From: Rhina ancylostomus
Taxonomy: Eukaryota
Direction: 5' to 3'
NCBI GenBank assembly: GCA_030265395.1
Contig: JARFYF010000001.1
Location: 91,996,871 to 92,060,870, forward strand
Length of the DNA stretch: 64,000 nt
The notes under the pieces were generated by a model. That model was given only the letters and a program-made list of their open reading frames with translations. It did not search any database and had not been told where the DNA came from. The translations under genes and the position numbers were made by a program. Each line of letters begins with the position of its first letter. Position 1 is the first letter of the stretch. Below, one piece after another: positions 5,001-46,300 of the stretch.

Positions 5001-8000
5001 TTGAACAAACCTTCTCCCACCCCTCTCCCATTTCTGCACTCCCTGTCATTACCTGTTCCGAAGACAGGATTTTCCACACCAGTGCCTCAGACGTCTTTTT
5101 TCTTCATTATGACTTCCCCTTGACCATAACTGACAAGGCCCTCAACTGCATTTACCCTGTCAAACACTTAAGAATGTTGTATGTTTCAATGAGATCACTT
5201 CTTATCAGAGTCACTCACTTATATAATGTTGTGAAATACGTTGCTTTGTAGAGAATATTGGCTGAGTATTCTCCTCATACAACAGAGTCAATCTGGTGAA
5301 TCTCTGCTGCACCCCCTCTACTGAAAATATATTCTTCCTTGTGTAGGGATACAATCTCAGCAAGGGTTTATATATAACCACTTTTACTCTTGCAAAGAAA
5401 TTTTCTTGTATTAACGGCTAACAGATTGCATGCCTACTTGCTTGCTGAACCTGCATATTAACTTTGTGATTTGTATACATGTATCTATCTAAATATCAAC
5501 ACTTTTCAATTCTTCAGCATTTAAAAATACATCACTTTTCTATTCTTCTACCAAAATTGATGATTTCACATTTTCCTGCTGCCATTCATTTCATCTGTCT
5601 ATATCCCCTGAAATTTCTCTCCATCCCACTCACAGCCCAAATTACCACCAGGTTTTGTGTCAAAGTTGGATGTATTACACTTAATTCAATCTAAATCACT
5701 GATGTCAATTGTGCATTTGGGAACATAGCATCAATCCCTTGGCACCCAATTGGTAACAACCTTTTAAAACACAAAAATAATTGTCAATGCCATTTACTCT
5801 TTGTTCAGTTATCTATTATGCAGCATTTTCAAGTCTAACACACAACTTTAACTGGTGCACCTGTATGCTTGCTACAATCAAGAAAATCCAATAGATTTAT
5901 CAAACGTGATCTCCTTTTCATAAATCCATATTCACTTTGCCCAATCCTATAATTATTTTCCCAAGTGCCTTGTGTTACAGACTGTTACAATTAGTGAGGT
6001 TCGATNNNNNNNNNNNNNNNNNNNNNNNNNNNNNNNNNNNNNNNNNNNNNNNNNNNNNNNNNNNNNNNNNNNNNNNNNNNNNNNNNNNNNNNNNNNNNNN
6101 NNNNNAAGTAGTTTTTAAACACTTATACATGTCTCAGTGTGTTTCTGTTGTTGCTGGTACCTAACACTCGTTTTATCTCTTCAATAACAGATTCCAGTAT
6201 CATCAGGCTAACTGGTCTATTCATTCCTTGTTATTGTTCTGTTTCTCCCTCCCTTGATATTTTAGTTCTGAGGAAAGTGCAAGACCACTCAGAATGCTCA
6301 GATGAAACAGGGTAGATGTAAACAGTGTAAACGTTCAGATTTCCTTACAAACATGATAGGAAAATATGACAATCCAGTCATTTATTTCAAAACTATTTTA
6401 AAAGCTTTCTACAACTGATTTTAGGACCACTTACAGTGAAATGTGGAGCAATTTCTTAGTAAATAGTTCACAGATGATTACAAACCAGTTTCTCACAGCA
6501 GCATAGTTTTACAACAGCATTAGCACAGATTTTATAACCCTTTTGCCTCCCCTCCCATTTACAGAAGCTATTTACAGACTGACACTACCCATTCGATGGA
6601 AGCCTTCCCGGTCATCACCCTCCTTTAAAGGCAGACATTGCCACAGGAACAGGCTATGACAAGTTCAAAATATCTTGTAACTCACCCTTCGTTCATCTTG
6701 TGCCTGTGTGCATCTGCAAAGGTAACTTCTCCAGCCTGCCTCATGAAATCTTTCAGATCCTATGCAAGAGCAGATCAGTTAGACAAATCAAAGCTTATTC
6801 ATATAAAATGTCTCTATTTCCATATATCATTGGAAAAGCAAGCAAAAAAAAGACATCCAATTTCAAAATTTGTATTACCTTCCCGTACAATTCCCTAGGC
6901 TATTCAACCAGCCAAATGTAACAAGTGTTCGCAGAGGCACCACCACGACCGAAGACCAGATGGTTCTCTTCACCACCCGCTTGACTGACACTACCCATTC
7001 GATGGAAGCCTTCCCGGTCATCACCCTCCCTTAAAGGCAGACTCTGGCATTGCCATAGGAACAGGGATTGCTACTCTTGCGCTGTGACCACGGACTTCTT
7101 GCCTCACTCCAATCGAGCTTCCAAACAACCCTACCAGCGAATTTCTCCCAATCAAGGACCTCGCATTTACAGCAGGCTCTCAGAACTCTCGACTTTAGGA
7201 CACCTTGTTATCATTTTCAGGGATGCAGCAAGGTAATGGCACTAAACCCAGTGCCCACCAGTGTTGGTCAGGCCACCACAACACAGATTTAGATCAGCAA
7301 CTGATAAAGGTAGGAGCAGATTGGCATTTCAACTAGGCCCAAGAGACCAAGGCACAGCGATTAGGAAAACCAACGGCACTCCACGTCACAAGGCCAACGA
7401 CACGAGAGGCTGGTAAATAAAGGTTTTAACACTTGGTTAAATTTCAAAAAACAAAATCTGAGTGAACACATTTTAGTTAAGGTTAGTAGGCAATCAAAAG
7501 TTATTTGTATTTAAAGAAGTTAAGCTAATCAAGTTAAAAGGAGCAGTACTTAATTTTTGTAGGGCAACTAAAGGTCAACTGATTCTTTAATATACTGTAG
7601 TTCACATCTATTCTATATGGATCACCTTGCTTTTTTTGCAATGAGGCCAAAAAGGGCAGCAAAAGAAAAAGTACAATATGACAATGCCAATTTAGTACAA
7701 AAATAAATTCTATGCCAAAAGTAGATAGAAGTCTCAGTTTTCCCTTCATGATGGTGTACTTAATTGTCTAACCCCAATTTCCTTGTCAAAGGTGCTAACC
7801 TTACTTGAGTTCCCAAGTATAATTCTCCAATTAACCAATGTGCAAGTTTTATTTAAGTGTCAGCAAGCAATTGTGCTGTGGGGTCTAGCGATATCAAAAG
7901 GCAAACCCACTTAACTTTTCACCTTTCCATCAATGTTGTTACTGGGGCTCCTGGCATTTTTTTCCCTCCACCCTCTAGCCTAGCAACATACACTGGCCAA

Positions 8001-43301: not shown

Positions 43302-46300
43302 TTAATCTGCACTTGCACCAGAAGGTGACCTTGACATTGACCGAGAACGCGAGCGAGATCGAGACCGCGGCCGCTCCAATGACGCGGGAGATTTGGGTGA
43401 AGGTGAACGAACTTTTTGTTCCCTGGCTGGGGCACGGGATCTACTGCGAGAACGGGATTTACTGCGGCTTCTACTCTTTGATCTACTGTAGGATTTTCGG
43501 CTCCTGGAGCGAGAACGACTACGAGACCTGGAATACGTGCGGCTACGTGAACGTGACCTGCTGCGAGACCTGCAAGTGGAAAACAACAATATTCAATTGC
43601 TATTTCCTGCAAGTCACAGTTAAAAAAACTCAATGTTTCTTTATTTGAAATATCAGCTGAAAGCCAAATGATTCCTTGCAGAAGTGGTTTTCAAAGTGAC
43701 TATTGGTGCAACATGGTAACAACTTCATGATCTTTGTATCCACTCCCCCAAAGTACTAATACAACATCATTTGATGTTATCCTTCAGTAGCCAAGGAACC
43801 ACTTTAAGTGACTCTGTGAATTCAAATCTAATCAAAGTGGTCATGCTAGTTGACAGAAAATTTGTTCAACACTTGCCTGTGATGCTTAGGTTCCTCAATC
43901 AGTCTGATCTTTCTTCCATTTATTTCTGTGCCAGACAGTTTATCAACCGCATTCTTCAAGTCACTGTATGAGGCAAACTCGACCACCCTATGGAAAGAAA
44001 ATTTAATAGTTTGGCAAAATTCCACTCCAAATGCAACAATTTAAGTACGCAGAACAAGCAGCTTATGCTTGTCAAGATAAAAATACTATACTATTTGAAT
44101 GTACTCCTCTTAGATCTGTCAAGCAAGCAACATAAATGTTGGTATTTTTCAATGCCAAAGAGTAATCTAAGTTTACTAACAGTCATCACCAAATGCAACT
44201 TAGTTCCAGTCTTTGAGACTTGTTTGGTAAAATGATATTCAACCAAAGACCAGCTGTTCAAACATACCAATTAGCAAATCCTTCACACTTAACTACCATG
44301 AATGTTGTTAACATGGCAACTAAATTCCTTTCTTTCACTCACCCTTCATTCATTTTGTGCCTGTGTGCATCTGCAAAAGTAACTTCTCCAGCCTGTCTCA
44401 TGAAATCTTTCAGATCCTATACAAGATCAAATCAATTAGGTTAGAAAATCACACGCATTACCCCTGTTATCTTCTAACAAAGTCACTACATATGAAACCA
44501 AAGCTAATTCATCAAAATTTATTACCTTCCCGCACAATTCCCTAGGCTATTCAACCAGCCAAATGCAAGAACTTCTTGCAGAGGTATCATCACGACTGAC
44601 GACCCGATAGTGCTCTTCAGCACCTGCTCCACGTGAGCCCTCTCGGACATCACCCATCCTAAAGGTGGACTTTGGCGGCGCCATGGGAACAGGAATTGCT
44701 AAATCTTGTGTTGTTACCAAGGGCTCCTCACTCACTCCAAATCGAGCTTCCAAACAAACCTACTAGCGAATTTCTTTCAATCAAGGACCTCTTATTTTAG
44801 AGACAGCTCTCACAACTCGACTTTAGGACAATTCGTTACCAGCATTTTCAGAGGCGCAGGAACGAACCCGAGCACTTAAGCTAGTGCCCACCAATGTTGG
44901 TCAGACCAGCATAATACAGATCACCAACTGATTGAAACGTAGGACTGGCAATTCAACTAGGCCCACCAAGAGACCAAGCCAGAGCGATTAGGAAAACGTC
45001 ACTCGTCACAAGGCCAACGATACGAGAGGCTGGTAAATAAAGGTTTTAATATTTGGTTAAAAGGTTTGCACACAATTCAACACAGAACCAAGCAAAAATG
45101 TCACACTATGGTTTTCAAAGACAAATTACTTAAATCACAATGTCAACTTTAAATATTCTTGAAGCTGCAGTACTTATGAAATTTTGGTAGACGGCCAGTT
45201 TAAAAACTAGTTCAATATCGTACATATTTCAATCAATTTTCCTTGCTGTCATTCCTTCCAGGAGTCAAGAATATAGGCTCAGCTTTGACCAATTGTCTAC
45301 ACAAATGAACCCTCCATGTCTATAGGTATTTCAAAATGACCACCTATTTCCAAAAAGGAAACCAGGTGCTCTTAATGGTACCAAGTTGGAGGATTTCAAC
45401 TAGGTTGGCATTAGCCAACTACAGTCAGCATTAATAGAGAAAGTAAAAGATAAATCTACAATGGAGTTGAACCCTGACACTATTGAACAATCCTAGCAGG
45501 CGCATGCACATGGCCGAAGCAACGTCAAGATTGGCATTGGGTGCAATGATCTCCAAAGCACAATTGTTCTTTAAACATCCAGACTTATTTGAGAAGAATC
45601 ACAATTTGGTCAAGGTTGTGGAGCAGGTGCTCACCATGGAATCATATCCAGCATGAGTCATCAGCTTCAGAAAAAATGGAAGTTGAAGGACAACATCTAC
45701 AATAAAGGCTTGTTTCATTACTACAATAATTGTTTACAAATACTGACATACTAACAATGCATTTAAAAACACAAATTTGGGAATGAGTAATTATATTAAG
45801 CAAGCACACCTTGCAAGATTTTACATAAAAGTCAGGCCATGAGGTTTTTGTATTTTCCTGAAGATCCAAGATACCACTAGGAAGAAAACATAAATAACAG
45901 CACCATCTAAAAAATGCACCCTTTTGTGCCAATCAACTTGCTTGAAACTAATCTCATTCAATTTTCATTATATACATTAATACTGCTCCATCTCCTTTCT
46001 TCCTCCCGGCCCCCATAAACATGTGCACATATACGCACACACCCACATAGCTACAAACTTTGTAATAACGTTAACTATAATTCCACTCATTCCAAAAAGA
46101 TGAGGCAAATTTCGATTTCCACCTTTTACAGTGCATGCTTTTGTAGATTTTGGCTGCCTATTACATAGGTCTTCACAAGCAATATATAATTTCATACCTA
46201 TTTGTTTTACTTCATGCTTTCAGCTAACCATTAAGATCATGAGTCATATTAATTATTTTTCATCAGAACAAAATTTAATTAAAGCAATTGAATTAACTGA

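Follow-up and report, generated by a model that had tools for sequence, protein, structure and literature searches.

The window analysed here is a 64,000-nucleotide (nt) stretch of the genome of the ray Rhina ancylostomus (contig JARFYF010000001.1, our contig C1 of a 2.2-Gb genome), in which three intact SRSF5-type genes, all on the minus strand and with seven coding exons each, lie in tandem. Each of these genes carries the stop-codon ("poison") cassette known from SRSF5, which very probably limits protein output and is constrained at the nucleotide level by splicing signals. The unproductive splicing event in intron 5 of SRSF5 is present across animals (Lareau and Brenner 2015, PMC4379411), the cassette isoform of human SRSF5 is degraded by nonsense-mediated decay (NMD), and the exon is similar in all vertebrates and in sea urchin (PMC4379411). 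That this exon is conserved further than a stop codon requires has already been published (PMC4379411), and is expected rather than new. What is new is the tandem triplet, which is likely older than the shark–ray split and gives no sign of ongoing homogenisation, and the state of copy 3, which appears from sequence comparison to combine a cassette about twice as diverged as that of copy 2 with a second stop-bearing acceptor in the same intron.

Cassette anatomy and host genes

All three cassettes lie in the intron that follows the exon ending in SWQ (intron 5), have AG/GT boundaries, and are bounded by a tttatttaccag acceptor and a GGAAG/gtaat donor. The coordinates given in the initial annotation, with stops after 7–8 codons, agree exactly with the gene models (Table 1), and the seven motifs that it had reported as common to the copies are present in all three (7/7). 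From the stop to the downstream end of the cassette there are 507, 506 and 480 nt in copies 1, 2 and 3, respectively. By the rule for NMD, an in-frame stop has to be more than 50–55 nt upstream of a later junction, a distance that the observed 480–507 nt exceed several-fold.

By protein and exon structure the host genes are of SRSF5 type, and the lengths of exons 3, 5 and 6 equal those in an amniote SRSF5 locus (L005, see below). The nearest proteins to all three copies are SRSF5-like proteins of rays and sharks, with 98% identity between copy 1 and a whale-shark protein, 99% between copy 2 and Narcine P0004, and 98% between copy 3 and Mobula P0003. In protein trees (33 and 22 proteins chosen out of 209 fetched) the three copies cluster with mouse SRSF5 and fish srsf5b, with srsf5a separate (support 98/95 and 88/84), and copies 1 and 2 are sisters (99/98 and 99/99). 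Proteins of copy-1 type are found in the whale shark and of copy-2 type in Stegostoma and Hemiscyllium, and the shark Scyliorhinus has a copy-3-like protein whose placement in the tree is weak. Since copy-1-type, copy-2-type and copy-3-like proteins all occur in sharks, the tandem duplications likely predate the shark–ray split. A search of the literature for a shark or ray SRSF5 tandem triplet gave nothing relevant among the entries listed, most subscription papers being outside its reach.

Conservation among the three cassettes

Counted without gapped columns, the pairwise identity of the cassettes is 85, 79 and 79%; all three have the same base in 353 of 553 columns (64%). Between the same copies, coding exons 2–7 are 74–95% identical, fourfold-degenerate sites 54–67%, the short downstream intron 56–67%, and the upstream intron, used as control, 34–43% at positions 251–780 and 40–46% at positions 41–250, with 42% in alignments of shuffled introns. 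When evolution at the divergence of fourfold sites was simulated 2000 times, the fraction of invariant columns had a mean of 0.46 and a maximum of 0.53, as compared with 0.73 of 485 ungapped columns observed, and no more than 2 invariant runs of at least 10 bases arose, as compared with 13 observed (counted over the cassette, 40 nt upstream and 8 nt downstream). The cassette is constrained about as strongly as coding sequence, and far above chance.

The proposal of the initial annotation that a triplicate cassette is conserved beyond the need of a stop is borne out by these values, but its description of blocks that stay near-identical along the whole length is too strong. In bins of 50 columns, the invariant fraction is 0.40–0.68 in the middle of the cassette and 0.70–0.84 at the ends, and indels of up to 18 nt interrupt the alignment. 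The longest identical tract between paralogous cassettes is 29–32 nt. Perfect identity over at least 200 nt, the criterion for ultraconserved elements, is not reached between the paralogs, although that criterion was framed for human and rodent and is applied here to paralogs.

Conservation extends into the splicing signals upstream of the cassette. The acceptor-side 40 nt show 75–85% pairwise identity among the copies, and within the branch-point/acceptor region TTTAACCA and CCAGCCT are invariant in all four sequences, i.e., the three copies and the amniote locus. A branch-point-like word, CTAAYTGATYTG, is also present upstream of exon 6 in all three copies (acceptors near 6775, 30035 and 44432, minus strand). 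In the ray copies, cassette and exon 6 are separated by a short intron of about 110–125 nt, as compared with about 480 nt in L005.

Homologous cassettes outside the triplet

A 26-base pattern derived from the paralog alignment gave a single match in a metagenome collection, locus L005. This locus holds the SRSF5 gene of an amniote, whose product agrees with a bird protein at 147 of 150 aligned residues and with mouse at 146 of 155. Its cassette, 533 nt long, occupies the same position, uses the same acceptor and donor, and is 62–67% identical to the three ray copies, which confirms the earlier identification of the ray element as the known SRSF5 intron-5 cassette. The amniote cassette reads PICVVGLMTRSACGLS before its stop, in a frame different from that of the ray cassettes. 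Because it is homologous and yet read in another frame, the constraint acts on nucleotides and not on the peptide, and spans jawed vertebrates. Of the columns without variation among the paralogs, 276 of 377 agree with L005, as compared with 64 of 127 of the variable ones (p = 4e-6), and the suggestion that the three copies provide a within-genome footprint is upheld in this respect. None of the seven full-length motifs is found exactly in L005, and some blocks (e.g., agcgaatttct) are not kept there.

A further SRSF5-type gene, unlinked to the triplet, lies on contig C69. The 5′ part of its cassette is recognisable (E 9e-12; about 60% identity over the first 200 columns), and its protein is 72% identical to copy 3 and 67% to shark srsf5a, without a firm placement in the trees.

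Splice-site use in related species

Contigs from 5 of 24 listed sequencing runs were aligned to copies 1 and 3, with four runs for each copy. The runs are from other species and consist of assembled contigs whose RNA status is a guess; run X2 is marked "probably DNA", yet its contigs cover the exons and are joined at splice sites. No RNA run is listed on record for the stretch itself, a blank that carries no weight in either direction. On copy 3, contig cover follows the exons and the cassette, and joints with GT-AG ends connect exon 5 to the cassette (45029/46327, 1 of 4 runs), the cassette to exon 6 (44415/44525, 3 of 4 runs), and exon 5 directly to exon 6 with the cassette skipped (44415/46326, 2 of 4 runs). 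On copy 1, joints between cassette and exon 6 are seen in two of four runs and skipping likewise in two of four. The cassette is alternatively spliced, i.e., both included and skipped, in related species. Contigs run across the upstream intron of copy 3 in 2 of 4 runs, and a contig of 2040 nt on copy 1 comprises the cassette together with the upstream intron; such contigs can show neither level nor nuclear location, and cannot be told from pre-mRNA.

Protein models agree with inclusion. In a first set of 120 proteins, 86 reach SWQ, of which 13 continue without the following DL and 2 end in the predicted tail, one from Mobula (copy-3 type) and one from Rhinoraja (copy-2 type). Nine later proteins have other tails, and six of these nine end in PLVMS(L/W)AL (species include Hypanus, Stegostoma, Narcine, Leucoraja and Hemiscyllium).

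Copy-specific divergence and preservation

Orthologous cassettes are 95–99% alike, as compared with 79–85% for paralogous ones. For the copy 3 cassette, 5 differences were counted over 460 nt in one organism (A), as compared with 51 differences and 37 gaps over 1305 nt of upstream intron (p = 0.002), and 29 differences over 655 nt and 36 over 684 nt in two further organisms. The copy 1 cassette differs from those of other organisms at 29 positions over 682 nt and 15 over 411 nt. Because orthologous cassettes are so much closer than paralogous ones, there is no sign of ongoing homogenisation, and each copy appears to be preserving its own version of the cassette.

The copy 3 cassette is the most diverged from the amniote ortholog, with about twice the divergence of copy 2. 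In a relative-rate test against L005, copy 3 has 36–48 unique changes and copy 2 has 18–21 (p 0.0008–0.044 over six alignments), whereas the coding exons are even in the same test (23 vs 21). The copy 1 cassette evolves at an intermediate rate and does not differ significantly from either copy 2 or copy 3. Intron 5 of copy 3 also contains a second candidate acceptor and stop-bearing exon, which matches Mobula isoform P0194 (ending SWQ followed by WYLGS..); one contig from run X10 starts at 45878. No counterpart of this acceptor was found elsewhere in the window.

RNA structure and binding motifs

The initial annotation had proposed that the three copies would also reveal structural elements, which the present analysis does not support, with the reservation that four sequences give low power and cannot exclude small local helices. 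RNAalifold covariation terms are unfavourable (+2.45 and +1.44), just 8 base pairs have a probability above 0.05 in all three copies, z-scores from windowed folding range from -1.8 to +2.0, and Rfam gives 0 matches in the window at the gathering threshold and none in four loci with E relaxed to 1. Two candidate helices were rejected. One, between the branch-point region and the donor, has energies of -6.3 to -9.1 kcal/mol, a span that 15 coding-exon controls also cover (-3.0 to -10.1); the other, between two invariant blocks near the 3′ end of the cassette in the 3-sequence fold, vanishes on adding the amniote sequence.

Motif words for SRSF5, SRSF4 and SRSF6 were taken from PMC4379411, and five further short words were also scanned. 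GAAGA, TCCTAA and TAGGG fall at matching positions in all four sequences; their place in conserved blocks follows from how they were chosen, and they point to no particular factor.

Mechanism and alternative explanations

According to the mechanism favoured here, the cassette would have been duplicated along with the whole gene, likely before the shark–ray split, and each copy would since have been under purifying selection on its nucleotide sequence and not on a peptide. Inclusion of the cassette would lead to destruction of the mRNA by NMD, and would likely cap SRSF5 protein output; both this fate of the included form and the promotion of inclusion by serine/arginine-rich (SR) proteins are assumed by analogy with mammals. 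The most likely source of the constraint is a dense set of splicing signals, i.e., the branch-point region, the splice sites, and overlapping binding sites for SR and other proteins. These would adjust the shares of productive skipping, of inclusion followed by decay, and of transcripts that retain a flanking intron. The balance would probably be set by the levels of SR proteins, namely the SRSF5 paralogs together with SRSF3 and SRSF4 as in mammals. In mouse cells, SRSF3 binds and promotes unproductive SRSF5 splicing, with SRSF4 without effect there (PMC3439968), and also in mouse, Srsf4 knockdown doubles poison-exon skipping, and detained introns respond to Clk inhibition (PMC4281565). Many branch points are located upstream of SR poison exons (PMC5959240). 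SRSF5 binds purine-rich RNA, and the accessible part of that study holds nothing on its own exon (PMC13223733); the accessible part of PMC6547761 contains no SRSF5 passage.

Some observations weigh against this mechanism. The splice evidence comes from contigs of other species and not from RNA of this species, and the isoforms with a cassette tail are NCBI predicted models (XP_). No joint between exon 5 and the cassette of copy 1 is present among the 15 of 96 rows listed, and short contigs joining cassette and exon 6, with a 27-nt side, fit more than one paralog, the depths 146.3 and 26.2 recurring on copies 1 and 3. In addition, neither the SRSF5 word TCACAGG nor GAAAA (SRSF4) or TGCGTC (SRSF6) occurs at one common position in all four sequences.

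It is extremely improbable that the similarity of the cassettes reflects recent duplication, gene conversion or misassembly rather than selection, and for recent events this explanation is already largely refuted by the sequence comparisons. A tandem arrangement would suit it, and informative cassette sites are split 11, 9 and 2 among the three groupings with no single clean tree, a pattern that would allow for old conversion. However, the flanking introns are at the level of shuffled sequence and fourfold sites have diverged as described above, each copy has closer orthologs in other species than paralogs in the window, and the amniote cassette is homologous. A role in producing a short protein of 127–132 amino acids with one RNA recognition motif domain is very improbable as well. 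Short isoforms of this kind are modelled by NCBI in several species, and early polyadenylation in this exon is reported for single frog and zebrafish mRNAs (PMC4379411), but the frame of the tail peptide differs between ray, amniote and unlinked paralog, about 480–500 constrained bases follow the stop, and there is no AATAAA or ATTAAA inside the three cassettes. A function as a conserved structured RNA, or as host of a non-coding RNA, is likewise improbable: although RNAalifold pairs the branch-point region with the donor of the cassette itself, whether three or four sequences are folded, this helix is no more stable than those of coding exons, and the unfavourable covariation, the few shared pairs and the empty Rfam searches all point the other way.

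Two reviews list autoregulation of SRSF5, citing Yang 2018 (PMC7764535, PMC9956241). The chance that the three genes are joined in a shared negative feedback, in which all three proteins bind the same invariant blocks and the triplet is dosage-buffered as one unit, is in our estimate slightly short of even. Such feedback would be in keeping with the ribonucleoprotein (RNP) motifs and the SWQDLKD sequence, which are identical in all three proteins, with the deep conservation for which invariant blocks are enriched, with the auto- and cross-regulation just after duplication predicted by Lareau and Brenner (PMC4379411), and with the autoregulation listed in these two reviews. In the primary mammalian passages, however, regulation is by SRSF3 and SRSF4 instead, and no SRSF5 motif from systematic evolution of ligands by exponential enrichment (SELEX) is common to the copies. 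Furthermore, paralogous cassettes differ at 15–21% of sites and orthologs at 1–5%, so that the copy-specific sequence is itself conserved, which would argue against full interchangeability of the paralogs. A different and rather doubtful possibility is that the cassettes gained copy-specific inputs, most of them in copy 3, which then became fixed and left control partly decoupled. The faster change of the copy 3 cassette relative to L005 with even coding exons, its present constraint relative to the upstream intron, and the second acceptor without counterpart elsewhere in the window would fit such a course. On the other hand, the rate test uses one outgroup and three pairwise tests, of which copy 1 vs copy 3 is not significant and one alignment mode just reaches p = 0.044; the second acceptor is seen in one Mobula model and one contig; and divergence in sequence need not alter regulation.

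Organisation of the locus

The features of the window, and the unlinked cassette, are collected in Table 1. The last intron of copy 3 (43876–43570, minus strand) is of GC-AG type, and the GC donor is also found at a contig joint in another organism (run X10). At the likely transcription start of each copy (Table 1) there is a shared CTCCATTTTG word, which we take to be a YY1-like core; these starts are CpG-rich at copies 1 and 3, whereas that of copy 2 is cut by an N gap. For copy 2, a 16-base motif of the upstream exon had no match in the window and may sit in the N gap at 37524–37819. The 77-bp partial duplicate of cassette 1 begins 33 nt into intron 6 of copy 1, is found without differences in two overlapping contigs of run X20, possibly the source sample itself, and might have arisen as a neutral slip or serve as a decoy site.

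Table 1. Positions of the SRSF5-type genes, their cassettes and associated features (window coordinates unless a locus is named)
Feature	Position	Strand	Remarks
Poison cassette, copy 1	6879..7409	-	531 nt; TGA after 7 codons; orthologs on contigs of three other organisms
Poison cassette, copy 2	30145..30677	-	533 nt; TGA after 8 codons; shark/ray NCBI isoform models ending SWQ-PLVMS(L/W)AL
Poison cassette, copy 3	44526..45029	-	504 nt; TGA after 7 codons; contig joints at both ends; Mobula isoform P0003
Branch-point/acceptor region of cassette 1	7410..7441	-	Counterparts directly upstream of 30677 and 45029; also present in amniote L005
Second stop-bearing acceptor/exon candidate, copy 3 intron 5	45810..45876	-	Stop after 14 codons; putative donor at 45810
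Partial duplicate of cassette 1	6577..6653	-	77 bp; matches cassette bases 345-427 at 90%; 6-nt deletion
SRSF5 copy 1	2026..10771	-	7 coding exons; intact open reading frame (ORF), 256 aa; likely promoter/first exon near 11473
SRSF5 copy 2	27946..33433	-	7 coding exons; intact ORF, 287 aa; likely promoter/first exon near 37866, entering N gap
SRSF5 copy 3	43302..48074	-	7 coding exons; intact ORF, 271 aa; GC-AG last intron; likely promoter/first exon near 50245
Decayed fourth SRSF5 copy, upstream of copy 3	58289..62088	-	Exon remnants found with nhmmer: 2 (62088-61968), 3 (61908-61839), 6 (58350-58289)
Cassette of unlinked SRSF5-type gene	L018 2997-2539 (G000:C69)	-	Eroded, about 450-460 nt; reads SWQ-LVVRSLAF, then stop

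In the decayed fourth copy no cassette remnant was detected with nhmmer, but exons 4, 5, 7 and 8 were equally undetectable. A piece of a long interspersed nuclear element (LINE) lies within the interval of this copy, and LINE-type reverse-transcriptase remnants were noted by eye at 56800–59700. In the sequence flanking the window (10 kb below, 20 kb above), nhmmer found no additional SRSF5 exons, and no neighbour gene was recognised among ORFs of at least 70 residues; in the 10 kb below (L019), ORF pieces were judged by eye to resemble integrase and RNase H of long-terminal-repeat retroelements. Elsewhere in the genome, SRSF4/6-type genes with exons 6 and 7 fused are located at C55:9155521-9164761 and C36:28661109-28662304, and the retrieved sequence around them contains nothing that matches the SRSF5 cassette.

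Implications

Poison exons of SR genes are conserved over hundreds of bases, and their sequence requirements had not been dissected as of 2015 (PMC4379411). As a resource, the window offers three functional variants in one genome, 15–21% apart and each fixed across species. Candidate cis-elements are narrowed to about 13 blocks, 9 of which have a core of at least 7 bases shared with the amniote or lie in splice-site regions. The triplet is suited to a 3 × 3 comparison of self- and cross-paralog feedback, although by itself it reveals no new mechanism. On a tentative view, to which we give little weight at present, the copies might form a graded series of one ancient poison exon in the course of uncoupling, with two near-ancestral cassettes, a third that changed in a burst, acquired the additional stop-bearing acceptor and was then frozen, an eroded one in the unlinked gene, and a dead copy without it, the differences representing paralog-specific inputs. 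If true, functions could be assigned to individual bases of a highly conserved poison exon by means of this series, and the "replacement after duplication" model of Lareau and Brenner would be seen in mid-course.

Comparison with known systems

Contigs on copies 1 and 3 that keep the upstream intron while other introns are spliced may correspond to the detained introns that flank the poison exon of mouse Srsf5 (PMC4281565), which are marked by nuclear retention, NMD-insensitivity and a response to Clk kinase. The cassettes also resemble the ultraconserved poison exons of the SR genes SRSF6, SRSF3, SRSF7 and TRA2B, in that a non-coding exon is over-conserved together with its upstream branch-point region (PMC5959240). 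Unlike those exons, to which they are not homologous, the ray cassettes are 79–85% identical between paralogs, with identical tracts of at most 32 nt and not 200 nt.

The closest counterpart is the SRSF5 poison cassette itself (PMC4379411), with which the ray cassettes share the type of gene, the intron after SWQ, the early stop, the cassette with apparent retention of a flanking intron, and the similarity among vertebrates. Table S1 of that study lists the event in chicken, frog and zebrafish, for SRSF5 as well as for SRSF5a, and cross-regulation after duplication with later uncoupling is predicted (PMC4379411). The table includes no cartilaginous fish, whereas in the ray three tandem intact copies keep the full cassette, and the set further differs from the published one in comprising a decayed fourth copy and an unlinked gene with a more diverged cassette.

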